The notes below the pieces were generated by a model that worked only from the letters and a program-made list of their open reading frames with translations, did not search any database and had not been told where the DNA came from. Both the position numbers and the translations under genes were made by a program. From an uncultured Planctomycetales bacterium (GTDB lineage: Bacteria > Omnitrophota > Gorgyraeia > Gygaellales > Profunditerraquicolaceae), in contig CAZRVK010000001.1 in the NCBI GenBank assembly GCA_964603585.1, positions 207,856-271,855 of the forward strand: DNA of 64,000 nucleotides, in the 5' to 3' direction. Below, in pieces: positions 18,794 through 46,716 of this stretch. Every line of letters starts with the position of its first letter. The stretch's first letter is position 1.

Positions 18794-18823
18794 GAAACAC
18801 TCCGTTTGCCTGGACCTGGTTGT

Positions 18824-19825
18824 TTATGCGCCTTTCCCTAAATTAATTTCCTTCATGATCTTTTCATTCACCTGGCGTTCTACTTCTTCACCGGCTACAC
18901 GAATGGCATTTTTGATCGCTTTCACATTAGAACGCCCATGGCCAATGATCACTACTCCATTCACGCCTAAAAGAGGTGCACCGCCATACTCGGAGTAATC
19001 CATCTCTTTTTTGAACGTAGAAAGCGTATTTTTCAGAAGCATCAATCCCAGTTTTTCAATAAAATTGCTTTTTAATAAATGCCTTTTCAAAAAAGTCTGG
19101 ATCGCCTCGGCGGTACTTTCAATGACCTTTAAAGCCACATTGCCAACAAACCCATCACAAAGCACAATATCGCATTTACCGGAGAAAAGATCCTTACCCT
19201 CGACATTGCCAATAAAATTAAGGCTGCTTTTTGCGAGCAATTCATAGGTGTCTTTAATAAACTCCGTACCTTTACTTTCCTCTTCCCCCACATTCAAAAG
19301 GCCGATCACCGGATCGGGCTTATTAAGGATATTCTGGCAGTAGGCCACCCCCATGATCGCATACTGCAATAAATGGGTAGGTTTTGGGTCAATATTGGCG
19401 CCGGCATCGACAATTAAAGCATTTCCTTTAAGAGTAGGAGTCACTATCGCAATCCCGGGGCGCTCAACCCCGGGCAGTAGACCCAGCCCTAAAGTTGCCC
19501 CGCAAACTACCGCTCCAGTATTACCAGCGCTAAAGAAAGCATCCCCTTTGCCTTCCTTGACCAGATTCAACCCCACAACAATGGAAGAATTTCTTTTCCT
19601 GCGCACACTGGTAGCAGGCGATTCATGCATTCCGATCACTTCTTGAGAATGCTGTATGGAAACTTTACCTTGAGTATACTTGTGTTTTTTGAACAAAGCC
19701 TCGATTTTAGGCTGATCACCAACTAAAACTATATCATGGTTATATTCCTGCGCTGCAACAATCGCCCCTTCAATCACCACCTCCGGGGCATAATCCCCGC
19801 CCATAGCATCGACAATTATTCTCAT
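18824..19825 (-). CDS. plsX: phosphate acyltransferase
   Basis: Shows the PlsX family pattern (MRIIVDAMGGDYAPEVV... FVGNVEG). I prefer an internal start at ATG 19823-19825 (MRIIVDAMGGD). Confidence 0.9.
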   Translation of the reverse strand: MRIIVDAMGGDYAPEVVIEGAIVAAQEYNHDIVLVGDQPKIEALFKKHKYTQGKVSIQHSQEVIGMHESPATSVRRKRNSSIVVGLNLVKEGKGDAFFSAGNTGAVVCGATLGLGLLPGVERPGIAIVTPTLKGNALIVDAGANIDPKPTHLLQYAIMGVAYCQNILNKPDPVIGLLNVGEEESKGTEFIKDTYELLAKSSLNFIGNVEGKDLFSGKCDIVLCDGFVGNVALKVIESTAEAIQTFLKRHLLKSNFIEKLGLMLLKNTLSTFKKEMDYSEYGGAPLLGVNGVVIIGHGRSNVKAIKNAIRVAGEEVERQVNEKIMKEINLGKGA

Positions 19826-19897
19826 AGAAGTATTTTTTTTACCGAAAACAGGGAAGACCTGCCCGATTTCCGGCACCGATACAGGAGTCAGACTAAC

Positions 19898-25347: not shown

Positions 25348-26001
25348 TTAGTATTTGTATGAAATACCGATAACACCAAGATAGGTATTGATCCCGCTGT
25401 TAGGATGGTCAATTCCGGCATTGGAAAGATGCCGTAAACGAAATTCACTCACCAAAGATAAATTCGGCTTAAAGAAATAATGCGCGCCAACAGCTCCTGT
25501 TTCAATGAAATTGAACTGTGTTGACTGCTCCTGGGTGTGCTGGGTCATATAAACCATTCCCACGCCAGCCTTTACAAAAGGCTGGAACTTCCAGTTCTCC
25601 GGGACAAGACCTAACTTCAGGAAAAAAGAATTTCCAACTTCCATATTCGAAGAAGGGTCCCAGACATAGGCTAAATACGGTTCTATCTGTAAATTTACCA
25701 AGGAAGACGGGTTAAATCCGATTCTTTTAGTCAGGTTCTTCAGGTTAAAATCGAGGTCTACGATAAAAGGAACAAAACGGTAATCCGGCTTTTTATCAAA
25801 AACACTTTTTGCCTTCAGTTTATTCCAAGCAAAGCCGCTAAGCAATTCAATGCCGGTAAACGGCATTAAAGGCTCTTTTTCCAATGATGCTCCGGTTTCG
25901 ACGGCTGCCTGTCCATCCACTTGAGCAGCCCAGGAAGGATAAAGAAAGGCAAAAATAAAACATATTGTGATGAGGAGCAATCTGCAGGGTAGCTTTATCA
26001 T
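25348..26001 (-). CDS. outer-membrane beta-barrel protein, lipid A 3-O-deacylase (PagL)-like
   Basis: 217 aa. Has a signal peptide and alternating beta-strand pattern, and ends in an aromatic residue (...GISYKY). A candidate His/Ser catalytic dyad lies in HLSNAGIDHPNSG near the C-terminus, as in PagL-type deacylases. Confidence 0.4.
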   Translation of the reverse strand: MIKLPCRLLLITICFIFAFLYPSWAAQVDGQAAVETGASLEKEPLMPFTGIELLSGFAWNKLKAKSVFDKKPDYRFVPFIVDLDFNLKNLTKRIGFNPSSLVNLQIEPYLAYVWDPSSNMEVGNSFFLKLGLVPENWKFQPFVKAGVGMVYMTQHTQEQSTQFNFIETGAVGAHYFFKPNLSLVSEFRLRHLSNAGIDHPNSGINTYLGVIGISYKY

Positions 26002-26121: not shown

Positions 26122-27348
26122 CTATATACGCCGGCACATCCTAACGGCTTTTTCCATTTCATTCTCCGAAATAAAAATACTCGTGGATAAAGTTATATGC
26201 CGCTTTGCCAAATAAGAAGCAGAAGGTAATTCTTTCTCCTGGATCACCCCTTTTAAATAATCATAGCCATTAACCGCAGAAGTATAAATTTGGGAAACCC
26301 CAAGCCCGGAGTTCTCAAACAGTTGCAGGGCCCTCTTGCGTTTTTGCTGGTCATCGAAAACCAAAGTTAAATACGGATATACGGCCTTTGCCCCTGCCGG
26401 TTCTTTTATCACCGTAACACCCGGAGTATCCTTAAGCCTATATATATAATACTCCGCTTTTTTACGCTGAGCGATAATCTGGCGGTCGATCTGATGAAAA
26501 CCAAGGTGGCCGATCATGTTCCTTAAAGCAGAAACCTTATGTGTAGGGAAGTGTTCACTAAAATACTCGATATTCGCCCTAAGCTTATTCCCCTGCATCT
26601 GCCAAAAGATCTGCGGCAGGCGGAAAACAAACCAGAAAAAAACAGGGTTATAGACAAAGGCATACCCGAACAACTCCGCGACCTTAAGGCCTTCGGAAAA
26701 AATGTCTTTTTTTACAAGCTCCGCGACCTTGCGGTTAACCACTTCTGTATATTCCTTTTTATTTACGGCGATCAAGCCTCCCTCATATATCGTCAATCCC
26801 TTGCCCCGGCACAGGCTGAAAAAAGAAAAATCCCCTAAAGTCCCCACCTTAGCCTGCCGATAGCAGGCCCCTAAACTCTGGGCACAATCTTCGATAATAA
26901 ATATCCCGTTCAACCGGCAGATATGAGAGATCTCCTCGAAGACCAGCGGCACTCCAGCCAGGTGGACTGCTACCACCGCCAAGATATCTTTATTCGAAGA
27001 ACATATCCTTTCAAGATCCCCGGGATCAAAATTAAAGTCCCGGGGGTTTATATCGCAAACCTGGACTTTAAGCCCTGCCCGCTTAATCGCCAAAGGCAGC
27101 AACGGGCAAACAAAAGCTGGAATGACCACGGTTTTTCTTGCGGATAGTTCTTTTAAGCTTTCAAGGATCAAATAAAATGCCGCGCTTCCGGAATAAACCA
27201 GCCATGCAGAATCAACACCAAGGTAGCCTCGAAAATCACCCTCTAAAGAGCCATTCCGGCAAGCTTTCTTTAACCCCGAAAAGATATCTTTCCAGTAAAC
27301 TGGCAGTCCGGCAGTTGGAGGGATTTCTCTAAACAGACTCATTTGCAT
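26122..27348 (-). CDS. DegT/DnrJ/EryC1/StrS-family PLP-dependent aminotransferase
   Basis: 408 aa. Family blocks present (IIEDCAQSLGA..KVGTLGDFSFFSLCRGKGLTIYEGG) with a PLP-lysine region. Confidence 0.75.
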   Translation of the reverse strand: MQMSLFREIPPTAGLPVYWKDIFSGLKKACRNGSLEGDFRGYLGVDSAWLVYSGSAAFYLILESLKELSARKTVVIPAFVCPLLPLAIKRAGLKVQVCDINPRDFNFDPGDLERICSSNKDILAVVAVHLAGVPLVFEEISHICRLNGIFIIEDCAQSLGACYRQAKVGTLGDFSFFSLCRGKGLTIYEGGLIAVNKKEYTEVVNRKVAELVKKDIFSEGLKVAELFGYAFVYNPVFFWFVFRLPQIFWQMQGNKLRANIEYFSEHFPTHKVSALRNMIGHLGFHQIDRQIIAQRKKAEYYIYRLKDTPGVTVIKEPAGAKAVYPYLTLVFDDQQKRKRALQLFENSGLGVSQIYTSAVNGYDYLKGVIQEKELPSASYLAKRHITLSTSIFISENEMEKAVRMCRRI

Positions 27349-27444: not shown

Positions 27445-27861
27445 ATGAAAACAAAAAAAGTAACATTAAAAATTCTGTCATTCTTAATACTCACCGACCT
27501 TTTAGAAACCTTAACCCAGTTTTGTTTTAAGAAAAGCGCCGACCTGCAAAGCGCATTTTATATAAATACAATTACTGATACTTACCAATTCCTCAAAGTA
27601 ATCTTTTCTTCCGGCTACCTTTGGGTCGGTTTTATTTCCGTGTTCTTGACCTTCAGCATATGGTCAACGATACTTTCGAAAATCGATCTAAGTGTCGCCG
27701 TCCCTATCGCCAGTTTCAGCTACATATTAGTGCCCTTGGTCTCGATTGTCTTCCTGCATGAACAGGTTTCAATCCTTGACTGGACAGGGATATTCTTCAT
27801 CCTAACTGGAGTAATATTTGTTTCTCTTAGCAGTGAAAAAACCGGAGCTGTAAGTAAATGA
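27445..27861 (+). CDS. small 4-TM membrane protein, DMT/EamA half-transporter (ArnE/ArnF-like)
   Basis: 138 aa with 4 predicted TM helices. Overlaps the next gene by 4 bp (ATGA), which suggests a heterodimeric pair. Confidence 0.5.
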   Translation: MKTKKVTLKILSFLILTDLLETLTQFCFKKSADLQSAFYINTITDTYQFLKVIFSSGYLWVGFISVFLTFSIWSTILSKIDLSVAVPIASFSYILVPLVSIVFLHEQVSILDWTGIFFILTGVIFVSLSSEKTGAVSK

Positions 27862-28247
27862 AAAACAGCGCACTCTTTATAGTATCTCTTATCATCCTGG
27901 CTTCACTTTTTGATACCATCAATCAACTGTTCCTTAAAACCACCATAAACTCACTAGACTTAAATATAAACGGTTTTAAAAAAGCTGTCGGGTTCGTATT
28001 GAAACTGCTTACCAGGCCAAGGATCTGGGTCGGTTTCTTCTTCTGCTGTCTGTCCCTGGTAGTCTGGCTATTCGTGCTTTCAAAGGCCGACTTGAATTTC
28101 GCATTCTCGGTTGACAGTATGCATTATATTTTTATTGCTATCGCCTCAAAATTCATTTTAAAGGAAAAGGTTGGCTTTAAACGGTGGGTCGGAACCGCCT
28201 TTATTGTTTTAGGGATTATCTTACTAACTTTTAGCAACAGTAATTAA
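27858..28247 (+). CDS. small 4-TM membrane protein, DMT/EamA half-transporter (ArnE/ArnF-like partner)
   Basis: 129 aa with 4 predicted TM helices. Translationally coupled to the preceding gene. Confidence 0.5.
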   Translation: MKNSALFIVSLIILASLFDTINQLFLKTTINSLDLNINGFKKAVGFVLKLLTRPRIWVGFFFCCLSLVVWLFVLSKADLNFAFSVDSMHYIFIAIASKFILKEKVGFKRWVGTAFIVLGIILLTFSNSN

Positions 28248-28249
28248 TC

Positions 28250-29755
28250 CTATTTCAAATACCTAAGGACTAAATTAGCCGCATTGATCCCGGAAATAAA
28301 ACATCCGTGCACACCCCCTCCCGGAACAGTCCAGGCACCCGCTAAAAACAACCCGTTAACCGGAGTCTTCTGGGGCAGGCGGTTTATGCTTGACTCCGAG
28401 ACAGTTTGAGCGAACCCATAAATCGCCCCGTCATCAGACAAGGTGTATCTTTGCATGGTTTTTGGGGTCGCCGCATCCATTACCTCGATATTTTTAGATA
28501 ACCCAGGAAGATATTGTTCGGCACGCCGTATCAATTTATCGGCGACCTTAGCTTTTTTCTGCTGATACTCTTGGCGGCTTAAATTGCTCCAATGCGCGAA
28601 ACTATCGAAGGTAATGATCAGTAAACTGCCTTTTCCGTAAGGGACAATGCTGGGATCCACCTGGGCATGATCAGTTAAGATCAATGAACAACGGTCATAA
28701 TCGCCTAAAAGGCAATAATTAAAGTTTTCATCGTGGCTGTAAGAGGTACTGATCGATAACAACCCGTGGTCCATGCCTAAATCCTTTGCCGGTACCTTAA
28801 GCCCTAAATATACCTGAAATGCAGAAATTGACTTTTCCTTAACAGCCAAGCGATGGGCATACTTATCCTTGAGGTCCGCATGATCCAGTAACTGCGTCAT
28901 GGTCTGGATCGCAGAAGCGTTAGAAATTACGGCTTTGGCCTCAAATTCCTGGCCATCAACCGCCAGCACGGATAAGGAATATTTATTATGGGGGATTATT
29001 TTCTTGACCAAGGTGTTGAATCTTACCTGTGAGCCGTTTTCTTTTATTTTATCTGATATCGCACGAAAAAGCTGCAGAAATCCGCCCCGGACATAAGCGG
29101 TAGGATTATAAAAATAACCCCTAAAAACAATAAAGAAATAAAATGCCGAGAGTTTACTTGGCGCCAACCCCATAAACCTCCAGATATCACCAATGATGCC
29201 TTTGAGCCTTTGATCGCCGATATATTTATCCAGCACTCCAGATGCGGAGCCAGAGGACATACTGATAATAGCCGGATATAAAAAAGGGGCAAGAAGCAAA
29301 TTAATCAATTCCGGTAATTTCGAGTTATTGAACCGGTCAAATTGCTGATAAAACCCATCCAGATCAGAAAAAAGCTTCTCGATCCCGTTTTTTTCATGGG
29401 GGAAATTATTCTGTAAGAAAGCGATTAAATGCTCCCTGCTAAAATCCGCGGTAAAATCATGGTCCGGATAAATGATCCTGGCAAAATCTTTAAGCGGAAT
29501 GAATTCCACTTTTCTATCGACACCATATTCCTCAAGGAATTGCCGTATCTCTCCCTGGGGAGCAAGCGCATTCACACAATGTATGGCAGACTCGAAAATA
29601 AACCCTTTACGAAGAAAGGTTGTAGCATATCCTCCAGGAACAGGCTGTCTTTCCAAGACCAGGATTTTCTTGCCGGAAGCAGATAGTTTTAAAGCCGAAA
29701 CTAACCCCGCAACCCCGGCACCAATAATGATCGCATCATAACGCATGATCGTCAC
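28250..29755 (-). CDS. FAD-dependent oxidoreductase, phytoene desaturase (CrtI)-like / amine-oxidase fold
   Basis: 501 aa. The N-terminal dinucleotide-binding motif YDAIIIGAGVAGLVSALKL...LVLERQPVPGGY is present. Length and C-terminal GGGVHG fit CrtI-type enzymes. Confidence 0.7.
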   Translation of the reverse strand: MTIMRYDAIIIGAGVAGLVSALKLSASGKKILVLERQPVPGGYATTFLRKGFIFESAIHCVNALAPQGEIRQFLEEYGVDRKVEFIPLKDFARIIYPDHDFTADFSREHLIAFLQNNFPHEKNGIEKLFSDLDGFYQQFDRFNNSKLPELINLLLAPFLYPAIISMSSGSASGVLDKYIGDQRLKGIIGDIWRFMGLAPSKLSAFYFFIVFRGYFYNPTAYVRGGFLQLFRAISDKIKENGSQVRFNTLVKKIIPHNKYSLSVLAVDGQEFEAKAVISNASAIQTMTQLLDHADLKDKYAHRLAVKEKSISAFQVYLGLKVPAKDLGMDHGLLSISTSYSHDENFNYCLLGDYDRCSLILTDHAQVDPSIVPYGKGSLLIITFDSFAHWSNLSRQEYQQKKAKVADKLIRRAEQYLPGLSKNIEVMDAATPKTMQRYTLSDDGAIYGFAQTVSESSINRLPQKTPVNGLFLAGAWTVPGGGVHGCFISGINAANLVLRYLK

Positions 29756-29762: not shown

Positions 29763-30599
29763 TTATATGCTGTTTAGAAAAGCAATGAACTCCTGGGCAA
29801 CCCGGTCTTTTTCCTTATCAATAGTTATCATATGGTAACTATCTTCAATAACTATCAGGGATTTATTCATAGATCCAATATGATTAAGGACAAACTCGGC
29901 ATTTTTAAGACTGGTCATATCATCTTCTTTGGCGTGAATTATCAGGATAGGGGTTTGCACGCTCTTTAACTCTTTTTTTACGGTTTTAGTAAAAAGATGG
30001 TGCTGGTAAAGGCAGCTCATCGGGAAAAAAGGGCTTCCGAACAATAAAACCTTGTTGCTGAATTTCTTGGCACTGGCATCCTTATAAAACCTCTCAATGT
30101 TCCATCGCAACTCTTCATCTTTTAAACCATACGGCCAGCCTTCCCGGATATCCAGGCGGTTACGAATGAAAGGTATATGCCAGACCAGGTTCATTAAGGC
30201 CTTGCCTTTATGCAAAGCCCAGCCATCATAATATATAGTGGGCGCCAAAGCCACTATCCCGGATATCTGGTCCGGGAACTTATAGGCCAGGTGTATGCTC
30301 ATCAAAGCACCCAAAGACAACCCCCCGACATAAACCCGCAGATGATCTTTTTTTAAAAAATGCAGATCATCGGAGCAGGCCGAGGCAATCTCCTGCCAGG
30401 TAACCTTTTTCAACTCCCCTAAAGTCCCGCAGTGGCGCGGCAATGCATTGCAGAATACCGTATACCCTGCCTGATTCAGTTTCTTACCCAGATAACGCAT
30501 TTCCGAAGGAGTCCCGGTGATCCCGTGGATCAAAAGCACTGCCTTGCCATTATCGCCCTTAAGCAAGAAATTAAATTTCTTAGAATTATTAATAGTCAT
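29763..30599 (-). CDS. alpha/beta-fold hydrolase (esterase/thioesterase/acyltransferase type)
   Basis: The nucleophile elbow is GLSLG. An HG oxyanion region (LLIHGITG) is present. I moved the start to ATG 30597-30599 (MTINNSKK), because the longer track ORF would overlap the divergent gene and its promoter. Confidence 0.7.
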   Translation of the reverse strand: MTINNSKKFNFLLKGDNGKAVLLIHGITGTPSEMRYLGKKLNQAGYTVFCNALPRHCGTLGELKKVTWQEIASACSDDLHFLKKDHLRVYVGGLSLGALMSIHLAYKFPDQISGIVALAPTIYYDGWALHKGKALMNLVWHIPFIRNRLDIREGWPYGLKDEELRWNIERFYKDASAKKFSNKVLLFGSPFFPMSCLYQHHLFTKTVKKELKSVQTPILIIHAKEDDMTSLKNAEFVLNHIGSMNKSLIVIEDSYHMITIDKEKDRVAQEFIAFLNSI

Positions 30600-30655
30600 A
30601 ATGTGGGTTATTATATCATAAAATCCATTGATGTGAATTAATATTGCAGCCTTTC

Positions 30656-30683
30656 CTGACAGATAAAATACCGTATATATAAT
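30656..30683 (+). promoter_or_regulatory. candidate sigma70 promoter of the DUF482-like gene (cTGACA-N16-TATAAT)
   Basis: Plus strand: cctgacagataaaataccgtataTATAATtg. It lies 35 nt upstream of ATG 30719, in the divergent intergenic region. Confidence 0.3.
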
Positions 30684-30718
30684 TGCATTTATCCTGTTTT
30701 TTGCTATACTTCTAATCC

Positions 30719-31849
30719 ATGGCCGATAAAAACAGTTTAACATTTAAGATCAAGCACACCATTAACGACATCCCTGAATCTGCCTGGAGGGACCTTTTTG
30801 ATAAAGGCATAGTAGAAAATTACGGTTATCATAAGACCCTCGAGGAATCCGGGCTGAAAGAATTCTCATTCGCATACCTCACGGCAGAACGCGCAAATAA
30901 GCTTTGTGCGATCGTGCCATTTTTTATCATGGATTTCTCATTCGATACCCTGCTGCCAGATCACTTTAAAAAAATCGCCAAAAGGCTCAAACCATACATC
31001 AAAATGAAAGTGCTTTTTTTAGGCGCCCCGACAACCGAAGAATTTTATTTCGGGCTTTCTTCTGAAGAAAACATAGAGCCGTTCTTTAACCAGGCCATTC
31101 AGGAACTCCATTCGTTCTGCAAGGAAAAGAATGTCTGCGGACTGAATTTTTACAACATCTCCGATAAAAATGCCGCCTTACGCCGGTATTTACAAAAGAA
31201 CGGGTTCATTGAGATGGAAAGCCTGCCCACAACAATGATCGAGATAAAAGCCTCCTCCCTGGATGATTATATCCGCGGCCTAAGCAAAAATATGCAAAAA
31301 GACATCCGCCGGAAGATAAACCGATCACAAAGCCAAGTCCAGCTTACTACCGAAACACGTGATAATATAGACGATATCAGCCAGGAGATATACCGTTTAT
31401 ATTTAAACAATTTCTCTGATTCCGAAGTACGTTTTGAGGTTTTAACCGAGGATTTCTTTCGCAGGATTTGCCGCAATATGCCGAATGAGGCCAAATATTT
31501 TATAACTTACGCCGGAACAAAAATCGTGGCATTCAACTTGTTCATGGCAAAAGACGGCCTTTTTATAGACAAATTCATCGGTTTCGATGAAGAAACCCGT
31601 ATAAAATATCATTTATACTTCACCACCTTCTGCCACAATATCGATTGGTGTATAAAAAACGGCTGTAATTTTTACCAACCGGGAACCACTGACTACCACC
31701 CTAAGCTAAGGCTGGGGGCAAAACTGATCCCCCTTTATAACCAGGCAAAAGGATTCAACCCGCTCTTGCACAATTTTCTAAAATTAATCTCAAGATTTAT
31801 CCAACCGATCAATCTTGACCCATCATTGAAAGAACTTAGAAAACCTTAA
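30719..31849 (+). CDS. GNAT-fold acyltransferase, DUF482/FemAB-like (PEP-CTERM-associated type) family
   Basis: 376 aa. The N-terminal pattern INDIPESAWRDLFDKG...YHKTLEESGL...KLCAIVPFFIMD resembles the FemAB-like/BioF2-like N-acyltransferase family. Overall length and the twin-GNAT architecture fit. Confidence 0.5.
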   Translation: MADKNSLTFKIKHTINDIPESAWRDLFDKGIVENYGYHKTLEESGLKEFSFAYLTAERANKLCAIVPFFIMDFSFDTLLPDHFKKIAKRLKPYIKMKVLFLGAPTTEEFYFGLSSEENIEPFFNQAIQELHSFCKEKNVCGLNFYNISDKNAALRRYLQKNGFIEMESLPTTMIEIKASSLDDYIRGLSKNMQKDIRRKINRSQSQVQLTTETRDNIDDISQEIYRLYLNNFSDSEVRFEVLTEDFFRRICRNMPNEAKYFITYAGTKIVAFNLFMAKDGLFIDKFIGFDEETRIKYHLYFTTFCHNIDWCIKNGCNFYQPGTTDYHPKLRLGAKLIPLYNQAKGFNPLLHNFLKLISRFIQPINLDPSLKELRKP

Positions 31850-33063
31850 AGGAAAGAAGCCTTCTTCATTACCAAACTGGCATTATTACCGCCAAAGGCT
31901 GAAGCGTTATTGAGGGCAATATCGACCTTCATTTGCCTGGCAACATTAGGCACACAATCGATATCGCATTCCGGATCGGGAGTTTGGTAATTAATCGTAG
32001 GAGGGACAATATCGTTTTGGAGTGCCAAAGCGCAAGTGATCGCTTCGATCGCGGAAGCAGCACCCATCGTATGCCCAAGCATGGATTTAATAGAACTCAC
32101 TGCAACCTTACCTTGGATACCCGCAAAAACCGCCTTAATTGCGGCGGATTCGACTTTATCATTAACGGGAGTGCCGGTGCCATGGGCACTGACATAATCC
32201 ACATCTTCTGCCTTGACATTAGCCTGCTTTAACGCATTCCGCATGGACCGGGCAACACCATCAGCTTCTGGTGCAGTCATATGATACGCATCACAGCTTA
32301 AGCCGTACCCGAGGACTTCCGCATAGATCACCGCCTTGCGGTTTAAGGCATTCTCCATACTCTCTAAAACCACAATACCTGCGCCTTCTCCTACCATCAT
32401 CCCTTTGCGGTTCTTATCAAAAGGCTGGCATTTAACCGGCGCTACCGCCAAAAGCCGGTTAAATCCGGTAAAAGCAAGGCGGGAAAAAGCATCCACCCCT
32501 CCGGCAAGCATCATCTCTGCCTGCCCCATGCGGATCAAGTCACAGGCGTATCCGATCGCATAATTCCCCGCAGCACAGGCAGTAGGGATCACCAAATTCG
32601 GACCACTTATCCCTAACTCATTGGCGACATTAAAAGCCAGGACATTTGCCGGATACTGGAAAATAAGCTCCGGGTTTATCGCATTCACTCCCCCTTTTAT
32701 CCAGGAAGAATTAATCACTTCTAAAACTTGAGACTCCCCCATTGTCGTTCCTAAAATCACTCCGGTTTCCCGGTGATCCATGGAAACTGCCTTTAATCCG
32801 GCATCCTTTAACGCCAATTTGGCAGAAGCAATCGCCAGGCATGAAGTCCGGCCCAGATTAGCTATTTTATTCTTTGCAATAAATAATGCCGGATCAAAAT
32901 CCTTAACCTCACCGCCGTTATGCGTTGGATAATTTGAAGTATCAAAAGAGGTGATCTCCGAGATCCCGGAAACACCTTTTAAGAGGGCCGGCCAAAAAGC
33001 ATCCCTGCCAATACCAATCGAAGATATGACTCCTATACCCGTGATTACGATACGCTTATTCAT
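31846..33063 (-). CDS. 3-oxoacyl-ACP synthase (FabF/KS type, catalytically complete)
   Basis: 405 aa. Has the Cys block PTACAAGNYAIG and the His motifs AHGTGTPVND and GHTMGAAS. This is a second KS, distinct from the housekeeping fabF. Confidence 0.85.
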   Translation of the reverse strand: MNKRIVITGIGVISSIGIGRDAFWPALLKGVSGISEITSFDTSNYPTHNGGEVKDFDPALFIAKNKIANLGRTSCLAIASAKLALKDAGLKAVSMDHRETGVILGTTMGESQVLEVINSSWIKGGVNAINPELIFQYPANVLAFNVANELGISGPNLVIPTACAAGNYAIGYACDLIRMGQAEMMLAGGVDAFSRLAFTGFNRLLAVAPVKCQPFDKNRKGMMVGEGAGIVVLESMENALNRKAVIYAEVLGYGLSCDAYHMTAPEADGVARSMRNALKQANVKAEDVDYVSAHGTGTPVNDKVESAAIKAVFAGIQGKVAVSSIKSMLGHTMGAASAIEAITCALALQNDIVPPTINYQTPDPECDIDCVPNVARQMKVDIALNNASAFGGNNASLVMKKASFL

Positions 33064-33068
33064 AAATT

Positions 33069-33527
33069 TTACAATCCCTGGCCATCCATTACATCCTCTT
33101 TAGCACTTAAGGATATCTCTGCCTTGGCGACATCACGGTCTGCAACCTGGGCAAGCGCCTCAACTATCGCCACACCAGACAACATCTTCACCGGAGTTAC
33201 CGTAATTTTAAGCTGATCACCGGGTAAAACCGGGCTCAAATACCTGACCTTAGCTGCACCCAAATAATAAGACATCTTCTTTTGCCCTAAAGCAACGGAT
33301 TTTGCGGAATAAAAAAGCACGATCGCCGCTTGTGCCATTGCCTCCAGGATCAAAACCCCCGGCATCACCGGCTTATCCGGGAAATGTCCGGCAAAGAACT
33401 GCTCGTTCATACTGACATTTTTCACCGCCACGACTTTTTTGGCGGGATCTATCTCCACCACCCGATCGATCATCAAAAAAGGGAACCGTTGAGGCAGGAT
33501 CCTTTGGATTTCCTCGATATTAAGCAT
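33069..33527 (-). CDS. fabZ: 3-hydroxyacyl-ACP dehydratase
   Basis: 152 aa. Has the FabZ hot-dog motifs FFAGHFPDKPVMPGVLILEAMAQ. Confidence 0.85.
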   Translation of the reverse strand: MLNIEEIQRILPQRFPFLMIDRVVEIDPAKKVVAVKNVSMNEQFFAGHFPDKPVMPGVLILEAMAQAAIVLFYSAKSVALGQKKMSYYLGAAKVRYLSPVLPGDQLKITVTPVKMLSGVAIVEALAQVADRDVAKAEISLSAKEDVMDGQGL

Positions 33528-33777
33528 TACTTGCTCCTTTACTATCTAAAAACTGCCTGGCTACCGCCACAGTCTCTTTTAATGTAGTAAGCTGCGCAAG
33601 TTTATCCTCGGGGATCGCGATCTTATATTTTTTCTCTATCGCCGCCATGATCTCTAAGGCCATCATCGAATCAACCCCCAGATCCTCAAAGAACCTGGCA
33701 TCAGGCGTAACCTCTGCCGGAGTTTTTTCAATGATCTCTGCGATGATCCCTCTTATCTCTTCCTCGATATTTTGCAT
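33520..33777 (-). CDS. acyl carrier protein (second copy)
   Basis: 85 aa. The phosphopantetheine motif DLGVDSMMALEI is present. Confidence 0.85.
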   Translation of the reverse strand: MQNIEEEIRGIIAEIIEKTPAEVTPDARFFEDLGVDSMMALEIMAAIEKKYKIAIPEDKLAQLTTLKETVAVARQFLDSKGASNA

Positions 33778-33787
33778 ACATACCCTC

Positions 33788-34534
33788 CTATTTTATTCCA
33801 AGCCCGCCGTCTATGATAATTGTCTGTCCCGTAATATACCCGGAAGCGTCATCAAGCAGGAATTTTACCGCAAAAGCAACATCCTCGGCCTGGCCAAACC
33901 TGCCAAAAGGAATATTTTCTTTAATCACTGTTTTATATTTATCATTCAAAGCAGCCACCATGTCAGTTTCAATAAAACCCGGCGCGACCGCATTCACCCG
34001 GATATTATAAGGCCCCACTTCCTTTGCCAATGATTTGGTAAAACCGATCATTCCGGATTTAGAAGCAGCATAATTGCTTTGGCGCGACATCCCCACCACC
34101 CCGCTCACAGAAGAAATATTTACGATACTTCCTTTTTTCTGTTTGAGAAAAGTCACAATGGCATTACGGGTGACATTGAACATCCCTCCAAGATTAGTAT
34201 CGATCACCTCCTGCCAATCATCTTTGGTCATCATCATTAGCGCTTTATCCCTGGTAATACCAGCGTTATTGACTAAAATATCCAGCCTCCCAAAATTCTC
34301 CAGGGTCTTGCCTACCAACTCCTTCGATTTCTCAAAATCACGGGCATCCATCTGTAATGCCAGATATTTACCCCCTAAAGCCTTGATCTCATCTCCAAGG
34401 TCATTCGCCTGGCTTGTACTCTTTAAATAAGTAAAAACGATATTAGCGCCCTCTCTGGCTAACATTAAGATGATCGCTTTGCCAATACCTCTGGTGCCGC
34501 CGGTAACTATCGCTGTCTTCTGCTCAAATAACAT
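33788..34534 (-). CDS. 3-oxoacyl-ACP reductase (SDR, FabG-like; second copy)
   Basis: 248 aa. Has TAIVTGGTRGIGKAI, NNAGI, and the YAASKSG catalytic motif. Confidence 0.85.
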   Translation of the reverse strand: MLFEQKTAIVTGGTRGIGKAIILMLAREGANIVFTYLKSTSQANDLGDEIKALGGKYLALQMDARDFEKSKELVGKTLENFGRLDILVNNAGITRDKALMMMTKDDWQEVIDTNLGGMFNVTRNAIVTFLKQKKGSIVNISSVSGVVGMSRQSNYAASKSGMIGFTKSLAKEVGPYNIRVNAVAPGFIETDMVAALNDKYKTVIKENIPFGRFGQAEDVAFAVKFLLDDASGYITGQTIIIDGGLGIK

Positions 34535-34536
34535 AT

Positions 34537-35772
34537 TTATCCCCGGAATTTAGAAAATACAGCACTGGCAGTGCGCGCCTGTGATGCACAGCTGTTAACC
34601 AGGACATTGTTCACCTCGCATTCAAGCGTTTTACCCGTAACAAAATTAAGCCCGCATTCTGGATCCGCCTCTGCATAATTAGCCATCGCCGGCACACCCT
34701 GGCGGGTTAAAGCCAACACAGCCTCGATACTCTGCAAAACCCCCCCGGCACTATAAGATTCGCCCACAATGGATTTAAGCGCCGTTACCGGTGGTAGTTC
34801 TCCAACAGAAGAAAAAACGTTTTTTATGGAAATGGCTTCGATCTTATCGGCGTAAACTGTAGAATTGGCGGCAGCAGAGATATAACCGATCTGATCCAGG
34901 CCGATTGCGGATTCTCGGGATGCCATCTGCATTGACTGGGTCAAACCTGCTTGGCCAAAACCCCAGCCAAAACCAGAAACTTCCGCATAGATATTTGCCC
35001 CGCGGTCAACCGCAGATCCCAGTTCTTCCAATACCAATATCCCGGCACCTTCAGATAAAACAATACCATTCCTTCTTTTATCGAATGGACAGCTCAACTC
35101 CACACTCCCCAAGGACGTGCCAGCTAAAAATCCGGTTTTATAAAAACCCAAATAGATCTGCTCGCACAACTCCTCCACTGCCCCAGCCAGGATAAATTTC
35201 GCCCGGCCTAAACGCAAAAAATCATAAGCATATTTTAATGCATCCAGGGAAGCAGAGAATCCGGTCGAGATCGTGGTATTTAGCCCTTTAATGTTGAATC
35301 TAAGTGAAACCTGGCTCGCCGGGGAGTTGATCACCGTGTTAGGAAAAAGAGCGGGATTAACATACTGCGGGCCATCTATCACGGCATCCCGGTCAAAATT
35401 ACTGATACTGCTGACACTGCCCAGGGTATTACCCACAACTACCCCAGCCTCACAGGTATTACTGTCATCCATTATGACCTTTGCGTCATCCAAGGCCAAT
35501 TTGGTCGCGCATAAAAGCAGCTTTGTGCTTCGGTCAAGCGTCCTAAGCCCTTTTGCGCCTAAGATCGCTTCCGGAGCAAAACCCCCTATCTCTCCTGCTG
35601 TTTTTGCGCTAAATCCAGCGGTATCAAACAAAGAAACCGGTTTTATCCCGGAAATAGAATTAAAAACAGCCTGCATAAAGGCATCTTTTCCGACAGCATT
35701 AGAGGCAACTACCCCCAAACCGGTAACAACCACTCTTTTTCTCATGAATTTCCCCTTAGAACTGACATTCAA
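34537..35772 (-). CDS. ketosynthase-like protein lacking the Cys-His-His catalytic triad (chain-length-factor-like partner)
   Basis: It has the KS fold throughout. At the position of the active-site Cys it reads ISTGFSAS, against ATACASG in FabF. At the first His it reads AAANSTV, against AHGTST. At the second His it reads GESYSAGG, against GHLLGAAG. The likely true start is ATG 35743-35745 (MRKRVVVTGLG), with an AAGGGG RBS upstream. Confidence 0.7.
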   Translation of the reverse strand: MNVSSKGKFMRKRVVVTGLGVVASNAVGKDAFMQAVFNSISGIKPVSLFDTAGFSAKTAGEIGGFAPEAILGAKGLRTLDRSTKLLLCATKLALDDAKVIMDDSNTCEAGVVVGNTLGSVSSISNFDRDAVIDGPQYVNPALFPNTVINSPASQVSLRFNIKGLNTTISTGFSASLDALKYAYDFLRLGRAKFILAGAVEELCEQIYLGFYKTGFLAGTSLGSVELSCPFDKRRNGIVLSEGAGILVLEELGSAVDRGANIYAEVSGFGWGFGQAGLTQSMQMASRESAIGLDQIGYISAAANSTVYADKIEAISIKNVFSSVGELPPVTALKSIVGESYSAGGVLQSIEAVLALTRQGVPAMANYAEADPECGLNFVTGKTLECEVNNVLVNSCASQARTASAVFSKFRG

Positions 35773-35791: not shown

Positions 35792-35820
35792 ATTATATCT
35801 CTCTTAAAACTTTATCTCAA
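35792..35820 (-). promoter_or_regulatory. candidate sigma70 promoter (TTGAGA-N17-TATAAT) for the CLF-KR-ACP-DH-KS operon
   Basis: Minus-strand reading: cTTGAGAtaaagttttaagagagaTATAATat. It lies in the 121-bp gap upstream of the CLF-like gene. Confidence 0.4.
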
Positions 35821-35893: not shown

Positions 35894-36832
35894 TCACATG
35901 AGCGCCTCGGCTATCCGGATATTCGTCTGTCCGTTCGTTGCATCAATCTGCCTGTCATCAACATCTTTTGCGCTATACTCTTTCGGATGATCAAGGGTTG
36001 AACAAATCGATTTAAACCTGCCGTGTATCTTTATCCGGGAATACTCCCCGGTAACATCTAATCCAACGATATCCGTATTCTCCTTGAAAAATTTCAGGAT
36101 AAAAAGCAGCTCATCCAGGGAAAAACGGCCTTCCTCCCAGTTGGTCAAGGCATACTTACGGGTCAGACAATCCTTATCAATACTGATATATACCTTATCG
36201 GTGGCAAAGCGCCCTATCATAGAAGACAGGAATTTTCCCATCTCCCTGCCTTTAAGTTCCTGCCAGGATATTTCATTATAATACCAGCTTTTTTTTAATC
36301 CAATAGACAGATTTTGCGGCACATCCCTGAATATTACCCTGGCAGGTTTATGCGAATATGGATAAATCTCCAGCCGGTTATTCCTCATAGCAGCCAAATT
36401 CCCGCTTTCCAAATGCAAAGTCGAAATATCATCAGAGGCTACACCGAATAAAACCACTTTCTCAATGTTTTGTGAGCGTAACGCCCGGCTAACCCAGGAA
36501 CCACATCCGGTTTTCGGAGGCAAGGTATCCCAATCAGGGTGATTATCAAAAACAATCAGGTTTAGAGGCTGACTGAACTGCTCTAAGAGGATGCTGGAGA
36601 TATGATGGAAGTCACCGGACCCAAAGAAAGTTATCCGGTTCTTATCGGAAAAGGCCAGCGCCTGCTTTATCTGGATCTCGGCGTTTTTATCCAGCCAGAA
36701 CCGGCAATCAAGCCCTATTTTCAGCAAATCAACTACTTCGGGATTGAAACGCCTGATAAAATCATCCTGCCTTAAAAGGCTGTTATCAAAATTGAGTATG
36801 CGGATTTGACCGGGAAGTAATCGATTCATCAA
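35894..36832 (-). CDS. arginase/agmatinase/formiminoglutamase-fold (ureohydrolase superfamily) protein, substrate unknown
   Basis: 312 aa. Counterparts of the arginase metal-binding motifs appear in the canonical order. GSGDFHHIS stands for GGDHS, FDNHPD for DAHAD, SIDKDCL for SxDxDxLDP, and GLDVTGEYS for DVVE. Confidence 0.45.
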   Translation of the reverse strand: MMNRLLPGQIRILNFDNSLLRQDDFIRRFNPEVVDLLKIGLDCRFWLDKNAEIQIKQALAFSDKNRITFFGSGDFHHISSILLEQFSQPLNLIVFDNHPDWDTLPPKTGCGSWVSRALRSQNIEKVVLFGVASDDISTLHLESGNLAAMRNNRLEIYPYSHKPARVIFRDVPQNLSIGLKKSWYYNEISWQELKGREMGKFLSSMIGRFATDKVYISIDKDCLTRKYALTNWEEGRFSLDELLFILKFFKENTDIVGLDVTGEYSRIKIHGRFKSICSTLDHPKEYSAKDVDDRQIDATNGQTNIRIAEALM

Positions 36833-37491
36833 ACCATTCTTCTTAAACCAGCATAGACGCTTTTTAAATCCCTGAACGGGATACAGCCGCGCCTTATCTT
36901 TTTAAAATATTCCAACAGATCATCCTTGGCAAAAACAATATCTGCCTGCTGGGCAGGGCAAATATCAGAACGGCCGTCTCCGATATAAATGATCCTCTCC
37001 TTAAACCTGTTTCTTAATAAATTGTTCCTCTTGCAATGAGCACAATAAGAACAAGCGCGGTTATGATGCGGAAAATAAAGCAATAATCTGTTTTTGGAGA
37101 ATTTCAGCCGGTTAGAACAAACCTTTATGCCGCAAATATCATTTTGGCGTAGGATGACATTGATAATAAAAGAAAAATTATCGCTTAATATCTTGACCGG
37201 GATATTCTTTGATTTAAGTAAAACAAGTATTTTCTTGAAATAAGGGTCGATCTTTATGCCGGACAAATAGCGCAATAAATCTGTCTTGGATAAACGCACG
37301 CCTGCTAATTGCCCTCTAAGGCAGGCCCGGGAGCCAATAACCCCCTTTTTCCACTGTCTTTCAAGTTCAACCCATTTCTTATCTATCGAGAAACGTTTAA
37401 TGATATCATCCAAAACATCAACCTTTGTGATCGTATTGTCAAAATCAAAGAAAACTGCATGTCCAGATAAGAAATTCATATATTCCGCCAT
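36829..37491 (-). CDS. HAD-superfamily phosphatase (MtnX/phosphoserine-phosphatase-like subfamily) with an inserted Cys cluster
   Basis: 220 aa. Motif I is FFDFDNTIT (DxDxT). A C-terminal GDGRSD motif is present. There is an unusual CSYCAHC segment. Confidence 0.55.
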   Translation of the reverse strand: MAEYMNFLSGHAVFFDFDNTITKVDVLDDIIKRFSIDKKWVELERQWKKGVIGSRACLRGQLAGVRLSKTDLLRYLSGIKIDPYFKKILVLLKSKNIPVKILSDNFSFIINVILRQNDICGIKVCSNRLKFSKNRLLLYFPHHNRACSYCAHCKRNNLLRNRFKERIIYIGDGRSDICPAQQADIVFAKDDLLEYFKKIRRGCIPFRDLKSVYAGLRRMV

Positions 37492-43787: not shown

Positions 43788-44648
43788 TTACTCCTTTTTG
43801 GAAAGTTCTTCCGCACGCTTTTTAGCCGCTTTTATCGCCTCGCTCAAAGAACCGGTCTCTCGCAATGCCGTTAACCCGGCATCTGTCGTTCCACCTTTGG
43901 AAGTAACCTGCTTCTCTATTTCTTCGGAAGACGAATTCCCTAAACGCGCAAAACTAAAGCAAGTATCGGTTGTCGTCTCCGATAAATACTCTGCGTCGCT
44001 TAAACTAAATCCGGCTTCCAGAGCGCCTTTCTTAAGTGCAGGGGCAAAATATGCGCGGGCAAATTCATTTACGGCAGCAGTATTTTTTATATCTATCCCC
44101 CGGACTTGAAGCAAATAAAAGAAATATCCCGGGCCGCTGCCGGAAACCGCGGTTGCCGCATCCATCATACCCTCGTCTATTTGTTTTACTTCTCCGATAT
44201 ATTCAAATAAATCAAGTGTAAAATCCATATCCTCATCAGTCGCAGATGCGCCCTGTGATATACAGGTAACACTACTGCCGATCCGGGCGCCTATATTAGG
44301 CATGACCCGAACCACCCGCACTACTCCTAAACGTTTCCGGATATATTCTGTAGTTATTCCTGCGGCGATGGAGATGAACAATTTATCCAATAGATGTTTA
44401 TAGCCTTTTATCTCATCTAAAACAGCATCAAAATCCTGGGGCTTGACCGCGATAACCACCGCCTGAACTTGATCACATAAAGCAATGATACTATCCGCCG
44501 TTTTTACGCCTGTTGCTCCGGCAAGGCGGCATTTTTCTTTATCAAAAACAATAACCTCATAATAGGACTTTAACTGATTTGCGATTGCCGAGCCCATATT
44601 GCCAAAACCGATTATCCCGATTATTTTTTCCATAATTATATCCTGCAT
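43788..44648 (-). CDS. proC: pyrroline-5-carboxylate reductase
   Basis: 286 aa. Has the NADP-binding IGIIGFGNMGSAI and the ProC C-terminal dimerisation region. Confidence 0.85.
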   Translation of the reverse strand: MQDIIMEKIIGIIGFGNMGSAIANQLKSYYEVIVFDKEKCRLAGATGVKTADSIIALCDQVQAVVIAVKPQDFDAVLDEIKGYKHLLDKLFISIAAGITTEYIRKRLGVVRVVRVMPNIGARIGSSVTCISQGASATDEDMDFTLDLFEYIGEVKQIDEGMMDAATAVSGSGPGYFFYLLQVRGIDIKNTAAVNEFARAYFAPALKKGALEAGFSLSDAEYLSETTTDTCFSFARLGNSSSEEIEKQVTSKGGTTDAGLTALRETGSLSEAIKAAKKRAEELSKKE

Positions 44649-44653
44649 AAAGG

Positions 44654-45352
44654 CTATTCAAACAAAGCCCTGCCGAGCCGGACCATTTGCGAACCTTCTT
44701 CTATCGCCACTTCAAAATCACCAGTCATTCCCATCGATAAAATTAGCCCCCCACCGCCAGTCTCCGACACAGAAAAACTAACCATCTGCCTGCGATAAAG
44801 CTCATCCCGTAATTTACGCAGCTGGCGGAAATAAGGCCGGGCATTCTCCGGTTCATCTACTAAAGGAGCGATCGTCATCAGCCCCCGGAGGCGAATATTC
44901 TTTAATCCGAGTATTTGCTTAAAGTTAATTAAAAGATCCTCCGCCGATAAACCATGTTTTGTCGGTTCCGGGGAAGTCTTCACCTCCAGGAGAATTTCCT
45001 GGACCTTATCAACCTTTTCGGCTTCCTTATTGATTGCCTGGGCTAAACGCAAACTATCCACAGACTGGATCAAATCAAATATTCTGACCGCATCTTTAAC
45101 CTTATTGGTTTGTAAATGGCCGATCAAATGCCAGGATACTCTTTCGGAACCTAACTCCGCATATTTAGCTGCCGCCTCCTGGACCCTGTTCTCGCCGATT
45201 TGAGTGATCCCTCCAGCAAGTAGTTCCTTCACTTCAATGACCTGGCGGTTTTTAGTCACTCCAACCAGCATTATCTCCTGCGCCTGACGATTAGCCCTCG
45301 AACATGCACTGGCAATACGTTCTTTTACCTGGACAATATTATCTTTAATCAT
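44654..45352 (-). CDS. yggS: YggS-family PLP homeostasis protein
   Basis: 232 aa. Alanine-racemase N-terminal-like fold. The PLP Lys lies in VGVTKN. Confidence 0.85.
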   Translation of the reverse strand: MIKDNIVQVKERIASACSRANRQAQEIMLVGVTKNRQVIEVKELLAGGITQIGENRVQEAAAKYAELGSERVSWHLIGHLQTNKVKDAVRIFDLIQSVDSLRLAQAINKEAEKVDKVQEILLEVKTSPEPTKHGLSAEDLLINFKQILGLKNIRLRGLMTIAPLVDEPENARPYFRQLRKLRDELYRRQMVSFSVSETGGGGLILSMGMTGDFEVAIEEGSQMVRLGRALFE

Positions 45353-45420
45353 GGTCTTGGATTAGTATATTATACACAAGAAAAATACAGGGTCAATCTA
45401 AAAGAAACGAGGGGTACGGG

Positions 45421-46701
45421 TTAGAAATATTCATGATATAGTGACTTCAATTTATCCATGACCTTAAAGACAGGATTATGCGAAGAATTAGGATTAACTG
45501 TAAACCTCGGCTGTTCTAAAGACATCGCCTTACAAAATATCCCGCAGGCGGTAAGATACGCAAGTGATTTCCCGGAAGAAATTATCTCATGATTATGTAC
45601 CAATGCCGCGATCCGGGGATTAGTTATGCGCCCAAGGATGACCGGCACTCCAAGATGTGCCTCGATCACCTCCAGGAAACCTTCTAAAAGGACAGACCTT
45701 CCACAAACGAGGAAATTGCTTATCTGCCGTATCGAGACAACCTCTGCTACTTTATCTTTGATCCTTTGAGCGATTAATTTGGCTTCTTTTGTAACTACAT
45801 TTATGACCACGCTCTCTTTTATCGGCTTATAAATACTGTCTTTTTTAATCAATATCTCCTTATCCCCTTCCGGGTCCACAATGTCCTGGATCCGGCCATA
45901 CGATTTCTTCACCTCTTCGGCCATTTCAAAAGTGATTTTTAGTTCCTTTGACAATGCTTCTGTCAGATTGTCTCCACCTAATGGCAGGATCAATGCCTCC
46001 TTAAAAATATCTGCCTCAAAAACCAGGATCTCCGTAGAATCTTTTCCGATATCACAAAGCACACTGACCCCTTGTTTCGGGCGCTCTAAAGAAACAGCTT
46101 CATAGGTGGCAAAAGGGGAAAAAAACACCTCTTTAGCCTCAAAACCTGCCTGATTAATCGTGCGTATAAGCGTTTGCAGCAACGAAAGCTTCGCGCACAC
46201 AAGATACAGGTCCACCTCAATACGATGGCTATATAACCCCAAAGGATTGGCAATCCCGGTTTGAGAATCAATCGTATAATTTAAAGGCACCTGGGTAATT
46301 ATCTCCTCTTCAAGGCTTGAGCCCAATATCCGCGCCTGCCGGTTCACCTCTTCTATATCAGAGGCTGTAATGACTTTGTTGCCTCTTTCGGCTAAAGGTA
46401 TAATTGCCCGGCTATGCCGAGTGATAATGTCCTGCCCGGAAAGGTTGGTATAAACATATTTGATATTCAAGCCTGATTTAGACTTTAATTTCTTTAACAC
46501 CTTCTCAATGGAAGCAGATAATTCAATAGCATCAATTATCACCCCACGTTTCATTCCAGAAGAAGGAGCATCTTCAAAGAACATCTCGACAATATTGTTT
46601 TTATTCACCTTGGCCGCCACAGCAGATATCTTGCTTGCGCTGATATCTACAGCGCAAATACACTCTTTCTGAAATATTCCCAAATTAAGCCTCCATTTCA
46701 T
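45421..46701 (-). CDS. ftsA: cell division protein FtsA
   Basis: 426 aa. Actin-like ATPase fold. Has a C-terminal amphipathic helix. Lies in the dcw position after ftsQ. Confidence 0.85.
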   Translation of the reverse strand: MKWRLNLGIFQKECICAVDISASKISAVAAKVNKNNIVEMFFEDAPSSGMKRGVIIDAIELSASIEKVLKKLKSKSGLNIKYVYTNLSGQDIITRHSRAIIPLAERGNKVITASDIEEVNRQARILGSSLEEEIITQVPLNYTIDSQTGIANPLGLYSHRIEVDLYLVCAKLSLLQTLIRTINQAGFEAKEVFFSPFATYEAVSLERPKQGVSVLCDIGKDSTEILVFEADIFKEALILPLGGDNLTEALSKELKITFEMAEEVKKSYGRIQDIVDPEGDKEILIKKDSIYKPIKESVVINVVTKEAKLIAQRIKDKVAEVVSIRQISNFLVCGRSVLLEGFLEVIEAHLGVPVILGRITNPRIAALVHNHEIISSGKSLAYLTACGIFCKAMSLEQPRFTVNPNSSHNPVFKVMDKLKSLYHEYF

Positions 46702-46716
46702 ATAAAGGATTGTTCT

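Follow-up and report, generated by a model that had tools for sequence, protein, structure and literature searches.

A ketosynthase and its catalytically dead paralogue in an Omnitrophota genome resemble the anammox amxFabF2/amxFabFmut pair

The putative ladderane gene set of anammox bacteria called Cluster I, which the literature describes as 'unique to' or 'encountered exclusively in' ladderane producers, encodes an active FabF-like ketosynthase (KS), amxFabF2, and a paralogue, amxFabFmut, that lacks the catalytic Cys-His-His residues. According to a preprint of May 2026, the source of the Brocadia fulgida amxFabF2/amxFabFmut heterodimer structure 9s5h and of 9s5i, the two proteins co-purify as a heterodimer, are inactive when alone, and together decarboxylate malonyl-ACP (ACP, acyl carrier protein) and form acetoacetyl-ACP (bioRxiv 10.64898/2026.05.19.726425). 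In the same work C6 and C8 crosslinking probes were preferred and went to the Cys of the active subunit, mutations of Phe135 and Val139 in the dead subunit of B. fulgida shifted the chain-length preference, and electrostatic asymmetry is said to drive heterodimerisation. Here we examine a window of 64,000 nucleotides (positions 207,856 to 271,855 of contig CAZRVK010000001.1, assembly GCA_964603585.1, GTDB phylum Omnitrophota) that encodes on its minus strand an active KS of 405 amino acids (31846..33063) and a KS-fold protein of 402 amino acids without the catalytic residues (34537..35745), hereafter the dead KS. We propose, with a probability of about 0.7, that this pair is orthologous to amxFabF2/amxFabFmut and that it would act as an obligate heterodimer in a side branch of fatty-acid synthesis. 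Pairing of a KS with a dead KS is thus already known; what is new is a member of the system in another phylum and its comparison with Cluster I.

The catalytic columns of both proteins were read from a MAFFT alignment that included B. subtilis FabF (4ls5), the housekeeping FabF of the window and both chains of 9s5h. The KS presents Cys, His, Lys and His at these columns (PTA[C]AAG, SA[H]GTG, I[K]S and G[H]TMG) together with the gate Phe (A[F]GGN), and the KS-like protein presents Phe, Ala, Lys and Glu, its gate Phe being replaced by Ser. A HMMER alignment to 4ls5 yielded the same columns. The initial annotation of this DNA, made by reading translations, had described open reading frames (ORFs) at 31846-33063 and 34537-35772 with FabZ, ACP and FabG genes between them, and had claimed that the second protein lost Cys-His-His; this layout was recovered as described, its six motifs are all present in the translations (PTACAAG, SAHGTGT and LGHTMGAAS in the KS; STGFSAS, SAAANSTV and GESYSAGG in the KS-like protein), and the Phe, Ala and Glu found at the three columns bear out the loss. 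Its statement that the second protein keeps the KS fold throughout is also borne out. Both KS Pfam domains (ketoacyl-synt N and C) were found over residues 12-366, the protein aligns to FabF structures over 9-410, and its AlphaFold2 monomer model (pLDDT 80, pTM 0.87) superposes on B. subtilis FabF with a TM score of 0.87; the PDB set used by Foldseek is older than the 9s5h release, and its result confirms the FabF fold only. Residues 109-138 of the monomer model, a helix-loop-helix, have pLDDT values below 50. The helix-loop-helix is disordered in a homodimer crystal of Scalindua amxFabFmut and ordered only in the heterodimer (bioRxiv 10.64898/2026.05.19.726425).

Each of the two window proteins found its closest structural relative in one chain of the anammox heterodimer. 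The best PDB match of the KS was 9s5h_B (E 1.6e-155; 58.7% identity in the MAFFT alignment), followed by the ishigamide KS 6kxd_A (E 6.4e-110), and that of the dead KS was 9s5h_C (E 1e-99), followed by B. subtilis FabF (E 3.8e-58). The view of the initial annotation that the second protein is a chain-length-factor-like inactive partner is therefore supported, both proteins being closest to the two chains of 9s5h. In a neighbour-joining tree (100 bootstraps) of KS and dead KS from anammox and Omnitrophota-side loci, all the dead KS of both origins formed one clade (100/100), the partner KS formed another (71/100), and the anammox and Omnitrophota-side groups split in parallel within the two clades. 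Likewise, among clusters of 1.8 billion proteins at 50% identity, the window dead KS and the anammox proteins share their nearest representatives. The window pair is thus orthologous to that of anammox bacteria and has the composition of the anammox complex (amxFabFhet; KustE3605/3606 in Kuenenia, 9s5h and 9s5i in B. fulgida), namely an active FabF-like KS and a paralogue without Cys-His-His that keeps the Lys and carries Glu in place of the second His. Equivalents of Phe135 and Val139 are kept in the window (ALFPNTVI), and LFPNTVIN is among the most conserved stretches of the dead-KS family alignment. The two systems differ in that identity is 43% for the dead subunit and 59% for the KS, in their host phyla (Omnitrophota as against Brocadiales) and in details of the dead site, where amxFabFmut has Val, Thr or Glu at the Cys column and Asn or Cys at that of the first His, whereas the window protein has Phe and Ala.

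Gene order offers a second line of comparison. We surveyed one genome per GTDB species and obtained 254 loci encoding a dead-KS relative. When these were ordered by their match to the amxFabFmut of B. fulgida, the first 43 were Brocadiales loci (62-94% identity), after which identity dropped to 51% or less; the loci below this gap are mostly titled Omnitrophota, the others being uncultured Planctomycetales, Planctomycetia or 'bacterium'. The closest named homologues of the window dead KS belong to metagenome-assembled genomes (MAGs) of Candidatus Omnitrophica or Omnitrophota, as do the most similar loci (L049, L064 and L072). The Brocadiales loci have the order ACP-FabZ-KS-deadKS-PDH-B12 radical-SAM (PDH being a CrtI-like flavoprotein, the phytoene-dehydrogenase homologue), with the KS present in 40 of the 43. 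The window-type order, deadKS-FabG-ACP-FabZ-KS-hydrolase-PDH, recurs in Omnitrophota contigs, with the PDH as the last gene of this conserved operon in five of them (L002, L003, L004, L064 and L072). Compared with Cluster I, the window locus shares the special ACP, the FabZ with Ile in its tunnel and, as a weaker counterpart, the CrtI-like flavoprotein, but differs in gene order, in its additional FabG and alpha/beta hydrolase genes and in having no B12 radical-SAM gene. An additional feature was observed in L070, a MAG titled 'uncultured Planctomycetia', where a third, divergent but catalytically intact KS (15446-16744, 27% identical to the window KS) sits after the PDH and is followed by an FMN reductase.

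Natural gene fusions join the same two domain types. About 32 of the 150 best cluster representatives are proteins of about 800 amino acids in which an active KS (CHTTKH) at the N-terminus is joined to a dead KS at the C-terminus. Fusions of this kind are a classic sign that the domains concerned function together physically, and at the level of sequence they support such a pairing of KS and dead KS. Two of them were each found on two independent contigs. In the first (P0190, 744 amino acids; L085 7699-10235, and L086) the KS half shares 52% identity with the window KS, the dead half shares 46% with the window dead KS over a partial alignment, and the ACP encoded before the fusion is 42% identical to the window ACP. 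In the second (P0177, 825 amino acids; L087 3393-10516, and L088) the KS half shares 50% identity with the window KS and 51% with amxFabF2, and the genes are ordered ACP, fusion, HMG-CoA-reductase-like protein, PDH-like flavoprotein, PlsC-like acyltransferase and MMPL transporter. The flavoprotein of the P0177 locus, of the amine-oxidase type, is 31% identical to the Brocadia PDH, and the locus looks like another, undescribed lipid pathway built on the same core. Orthology, synteny and these fusions together argue that the two proteins of the window would heterodimerise in this organism as well.

Conservation of the dead site was examined in the best 120 dead-KS homologues, which are close Omnitrophota proteins only (52-60% identity). 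None has Cys at the Cys column, where Phe is found in 113 and Gln in none; none has His at the first His column, which holds Ala, Gly, Ser, Asn, Cys or Gln instead; and all 120 have Glu at the second His column and Lys at the Lys column. The pattern is likewise kept in 80 genome loci, an alignment of 31 dead-KS sequences (~55% identity) contains 58 invariant columns, and the signature x-[AGSNC]-N-x-K-E recurs over dozens of 50%-identity clusters. Judged from these alignments, the loss of Cys-His-His is neither chance nor decay; a reading of the KS-like protein as a decaying pseudogene was ruled out by the conserved dead site and by the invariant columns.

Such conservation of Lys and Glu exceeds the needs of a structural remnant, and raises the alternative that Lys328, Glu333 and Asn300 of the dead KS, the set that stands in for the His residues, build a second functional site, either a malonyl-ACP decarboxylase priming the pathway or a site for the binding or transfer of unusual acyl groups. 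Decarboxylation and priming are the sole robust activity of the Brocadia heterodimer in vitro, and a non-canonical catalytic role has been proposed by Rattray et al. The preprint argues, on the contrary, that the substitutions abolish KS chemistry, each subunit being inactive alone, and its crosslinks land on the Cys of the active subunit (bioRxiv 10.64898/2026.05.19.726425). In addition, the residue at the Cys column varies over the wider superfamily (F, Y, E, M, I, L, Q or V), unlike a catalytic residue, and the Gln with which type II polyketide chain length factors decarboxylate is lacking in the window protein. We consider a second functional site unlikely.

Several observations weigh against an obligate amxFabF2/amxFabFmut-type heterodimer in the window. 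The amxFabFmut of Scalindua crystallised as a homodimer, and in vitro the Brocadia and Kuenenia complexes stop at acetoacetyl-ACP, further elongation not having been observed (bioRxiv 10.64898/2026.05.19.726425), so that the physiological reaction of the reference system is itself unproven. A one-dimensional net-charge proxy computed for the helix-loop-helix and the partner helix gave no asymmetry in the window pair, but this proxy is uninformative, failing on the B. fulgida pair too. Orthology of the PDH is weak, the window protein sharing only about 30% identity with that of anammox bacteria. Kuenenia moreover encodes another pair, kuste2804/kuste2805 (a FabF and a 'non-canonical FabB', with the radical-SAM protein kuste2803 and the AcpS kuste2802), and the residues given for Kuste2805 by Rattray et al. 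in their Table 2 (Phe163, Asn300, Lys328, Glu333 and Gln342) are those that the window dead KS has at the same positions, the comparison being made through that table. The kuste2804/kuste2805 pair stands outside an ACP-FabZ-PDH context, and the ACP-FabZ-KS-PDH synteny favours Cluster I over the Kuste2805 type as the relative of the window locus. Finally, at least 12 Omnitrophota-side loci (L050, L051, L052, L055, L058, L059, L061, L065, L075, L077, L078 and L081), about one third of the loci on that side, have the order deadKS-FabG-(ACP)-FabZ with no active KS within at least 5 kb on either side; the dead-KS gene lies at about 10001-11230 in most of them, and in L051, which was checked gene by gene, the neighbours are DUF4870, ligA and xerC genes. 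The dead KS of these orphan loci has the triad Phe-Asn-Lys-Glu and its own subclade in the tree. With no active KS nearby, the dead protein of these lineages would have to use a distant partner, associate with the housekeeping FabF or act alone.

The orphan loci and the Scalindua homodimer also suit another explanation, in which the dead KS of the window, in an ACP-binding or regulatory role, pairs with itself or with the housekeeping FabF (14532-15785), and the cluster KS is an ordinary homodimeric FabF paralogue. Against it stand the partner KS encoded in the same tightly packed unit of the window, the parallel phylogenies of KS and dead KS, and the natural fusions of exactly these domain types. 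We judge this second alternative quite unlikely and retain the heterodimer of KS and dead KS.

The gene content of the locus, with a KS, a dead KS, a ketoreductase (KR), a dehydratase (DH) and an ACP but no enoyl reductase (ER), is also that of highly reducing type II polyketide synthases (PKS). In the type II PKS of actinorhodin (1tqy), an active KS-alpha is joined by an inactive homologue, KS-beta or chain length factor (CLF), that shapes the acyl tunnel, a logic that the window pair would share, and the ishigamide Iga11/Iga12 (6kxd) and aryl-polyene ApeO/ApeC systems share with the window the set of KS, CLF, KR, DH and ACP without enoyl reductase. One could then regard the two proteins as a KS-alpha/KS-beta pair of a polyketide pathway, either aromatic or of the aryl-polyene or ishigamide type making a pigment-like polyene, the more so as Iga11 (6kxd_A) ranks second among the structural relatives of the window KS and FabZ homologues have weak ApeI/ApeP-like Pfam matches. 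The dead KS, however, is no closer to the Act CLF (1tqy_B, 126 bits) than to the Act KS (1tqy_A, 130 bits), which denotes no specific CLF kinship; Iga12 is not among the best 60 of its 90 chain matches (E<=1e-10), which reach down to E 2.3e-31; and its Cys column holds Phe where type II PKS CLFs have the decarboxylating Gln. No cyclase, aromatase, aryl-starter or Ape-type accessory gene, nor any other Iga or Ape accessory gene, was recognised in the operon and its scanned neighbours, and FabZ and FabG are of the housekeeping type, passing the corresponding NCBIfam cut-offs. An aromatic type II PKS was ruled out on the lack of Gln at the Cys column and of recognisable cyclases. We hold a polyketide pathway of any of these kinds to be very improbable, and most likely the dead subunit of the window arose independently of the PKS CLFs, from a FabF-like ancestor.

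The proteins encoded between the two KS genes strengthen the resemblance to Cluster I. The names given to them agree with Pfam and NCBIfam scans. These genes, all on the minus strand, are a FabG-type 3-oxoacyl-ACP reductase, the ketoreductase of the module (33788..34534; TIGR01830, 309 bits, above the cut-off; adh_short_C2, E 5e-67), a dedicated ACP of the anammox type with a PP-binding domain (33520..33777), and a FabZ-type dehydratase (33069..33527; TIGR01750, 163 bits, above the cut-off). The best PDB matches of the ACP (7qv0_D, 7auf and 9s5i_E) and of FabZ (7qv0_A, the amxFabZ, at the top) are anammox proteins, the entries of the two together being 7qv0, 7auf, 9s5i_E and 8ayb. The window ACP reads DSMMALEI..EKKYK where amxACP reads DSLLALEI..EKKFK, and it differs by not having the two-residue insertion of amxACP. 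Over the recognition region the cluster ACP carries a net charge of -1 and amxACP one of -2, against -10 in the canonical AcpP of the window. In amxFabZ a bulky Ile replaces the canonical tunnel Gly and the basic residues at positions 96 and 115 are lost, and the Scalindua enzyme ignores substrates borne by canonical ACP (JBC 2023, PMC10139942). FabZ of the window likewise has Ile (AQAAI), Leu 96 and Leu 115, both basic ACP-docking residues being gone; these features of FabZ and ACP predict a branch that would be insulated at the level of the ACP.

The housekeeping plsX-fabH-fabD-fabG-acpP-fabF cluster of the window is separate, at 14532-19876 (FabF 14532-15785; AcpP ~15.8-16.1 kb), and the module has its own, differently charged ACP, so that the separation of the two claimed in the initial annotation stands. 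To call the module self-contained, as was done there, was too strong: among the cluster genes we recognised none for an enoyl reductase, a malonyl transferase or a phosphopantetheinyl transferase, and the module hence borrows these activities or makes an unsaturated product.

Downstream of the KS, three further genes complete the locus. A CrtI or carotenoid-isomerase-family flavoprotein, the PDH, is encoded at 28250..29755 on the minus strand (Amino_oxidase domain; crtI_fam, 196 bits, below the cut-off). It aligns to the Brocadia PDH with 29.7% identity over 492 amino acids (216 bits), compared with 94 bits for the Pantoea CrtI 4dgk, and as a counterpart of the Cluster I PDH it is plausible but weak. 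An alpha/beta hydrolase resembling monoacylglycerol lipases (MGL) and carboxylesterases lies at 29763..30599 on the minus strand (Hydrolase_4 domain, GLSLG nucleophile motif), with a thermostable MGL and Est30 among its PDB matches, and is a candidate release or transfer enzyme. A protein of the FemAB_like/GNAT acyltransferase fold (PF04339, PF13480) is encoded on the plus strand at 30719..31849, between KS and hydrolase. This opposite-strand gene occupies the same place in L003 and L048 and is absent from L002 and L004, and is therefore an optional accessory.

Under the proposed orthology, the active KS would carry out malonyl-ACP decarboxylation and Claisen condensation, and the dead paralogue would supply the second dimer half along with a portion of the acyl tunnel. 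The pair would work on the dedicated, weakly acidic ACP together with the co-operonic FabG for ketoreduction and the narrow-tunnel FabZ for dehydration, the outcome being a side branch of fatty-acid synthesis, insulated through its ACP, in which short chains (~C6-C10) would probably be handled. Since the cluster has no enoyl reductase, the intermediate would be unsaturated or be reduced by a housekeeping enzyme. Its modification and its release into lipid may then fall to the CrtI-like flavoprotein and the alpha/beta hydrolase, perhaps together with the FemAB-like acyltransferase.

The release step appears to vary among more distant Omnitrophota relatives of this locus. A gene with an NAD_binding_4 domain ('male sterility', fatty acyl reductase) lies between dead KS and FabG in L060 (11226-12338), a gene of the same size, not domain-scanned, holds that position in L084 (4959-6077), and NAD_binding_4 genes follow the KS in L054 (14798-15892) and L076 (13921-16887). 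A nitroreductase is present in addition in L060 and L076, the latter having a GMC oxidoreductase as well. No hydrolase like that of the window was detected in these four loci, suggesting from gene content that clusters of this kind might lead to aldehyde or alcohol products.

A ladderane is an improbable product of the window module, since the locus lacks the B12 radical-SAM gene found after the PDH in anammox loci. This gene lies next to the PDH in 40 of the 43 Brocadiales loci (70-100% identity); a tblastn search with the Brocadia protein gave no match in the 64-kb window at E<=1e-3, and against the Omnitrophota-side loci it gave only remote matches to generic radical-SAM proteins, placed elsewhere in the locus, in some of them (21-24% identity). 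A reading of the locus as a ladderane cluster was rejected on this absence. Omnitrophota have been listed in a study of the Cariaco Basin among the phyla with antiSMASH 'ladderane' biosynthetic gene clusters (BGCs) of unknown function (PMC9902471). That listing, which gives an automatically assigned BGC class, probably refers to the loci described here, and differs from the present account in that the KS pair, the dead site, the FabZ and ACP hallmarks and the missing radical-SAM gene did not form part of that analysis. Our literature search found no paper linking Omnitrophota with the amxFabF pair.

Four of the six gene types of Cluster I (ACP, narrow-tunnel FabZ, KS and dead KS) thus have specific counterparts in Omnitrophota; the fifth, the CrtI-like flavoprotein, has a weaker one, and the sixth, the B12 radical-SAM gene, is missing. 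Ladderane biosynthesis is an open problem, and a gene set largely shared with Omnitrophota narrows what can be ladderane-specific in it. Omnitrophota moreover offer a second and possibly more tractable lineage in which the product of the KS/dead-KS module can be learned, and the dozens of sequence clusters and the natural fusions indicate that 'chain length factors' are widespread in systems of the fatty-acid type. More tentatively, and as a possibility that we hold to be rather doubtful, the module of ACP, FabZ, KS with dead KS and flavoprotein could be an older lipid pathway common to Omnitrophota and anammox bacteria, whether by inheritance within the PVC group or by a single block transfer, making a short, probably unsaturated acyl-ACP for an undescribed lipid of the membrane or outer membrane. 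If this were true, the anammox ladderane pathway would consist of the older module plus mainly the B12 radical-SAM enzyme, subtractive genomics would point to that enzyme as the candidate for the cyclobutane-forming step, and the Omnitrophota operon, with its FabG and release enzyme, would be a simpler system in which to obtain the native intermediate.

Regarding the gene calls, the ORF of the dead KS can be extended to a TTG at 35772, giving 411 amino acids. The true start is almost certainly the ATG at 35745, because an AAGGGG ribosome-binding site lies 7 nt upstream of it and an identical database protein (P0001) has 402 amino acids. The five genes at 31846-35745 are tightly packed, with gaps or overlaps of at most 8 nt between 33063 and 34537. 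In the gap of about 150 bp upstream of the dead-KS gene there is a promoter-like site on the minus strand (35792..35820; TTGAGA-17-TATAAT, 11 of 12 matches), which as the start of a five-gene transcription unit is suggestive only. The scan of the region for promoters and terminators gave total counts at chance level, only its top intergenic positions being suggestive: its three intergenic matches of 11/12 to the consensus all fall in this gap or in that at 30600-30720, and a 10/12 match lies inside the KS gene at 32728. An Rfam scan of the window found no RNA family. The ORF of the hydrolase extends to 30743, its homologues have 277-285 amino acids, and a promoter-like site at 30637-30610 fits a shorter start, so that translation probably begins at Met49.

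Upstream of the dead-KS gene, also on the minus strand, the Pfam and NCBIfam scans gave a weakly scoring arginase-fold protein (35894-36832) and a HAD-IB (MtnX-like) phosphatase (36829-37491). The phosphatase gene stands upstream of the dead-KS gene also in L003, L004, L049 and L072, and the place between the two is taken by the arginase-fold gene in the window and in L049 and by a class-III aminotransferase gene in L004. Possibly, and with uncertainty, the phosphatase and the arginase-fold gene belong to the module, and neighbours of these three kinds may point to an amine-containing head group or substrate.

Farther away, a cell-division and cell-wall (dcw) cluster extends from mraZ to ftsA at 43788-62443, its gene names coming mostly from reading translations and not from family scans. 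The tubulin signature of FtsZ (GGGTG[ST]G) is absent from all frames of the 64-kb window, and after ftsA (45421-46701) there are genes for YggS, proC and MTA phosphorylase in place of ftsZ. On the other side, beside the cluster, the window encodes PagL, a lipid A 3-O-deacylase (25348-26001), then an aminotransferase of the DegT/ArnB type (26122-27348) and a pair of half-size EamA proteins (27445-28247), which we take to resemble the ArnE/ArnF flippase pair. PagL and paired EamA half-transporters are frequent neighbours in the relatives of the window, both recurring by the cluster in L003 and PagL in L004, and this neighbourhood hints at a link to the remodelling of outer-membrane lipids.

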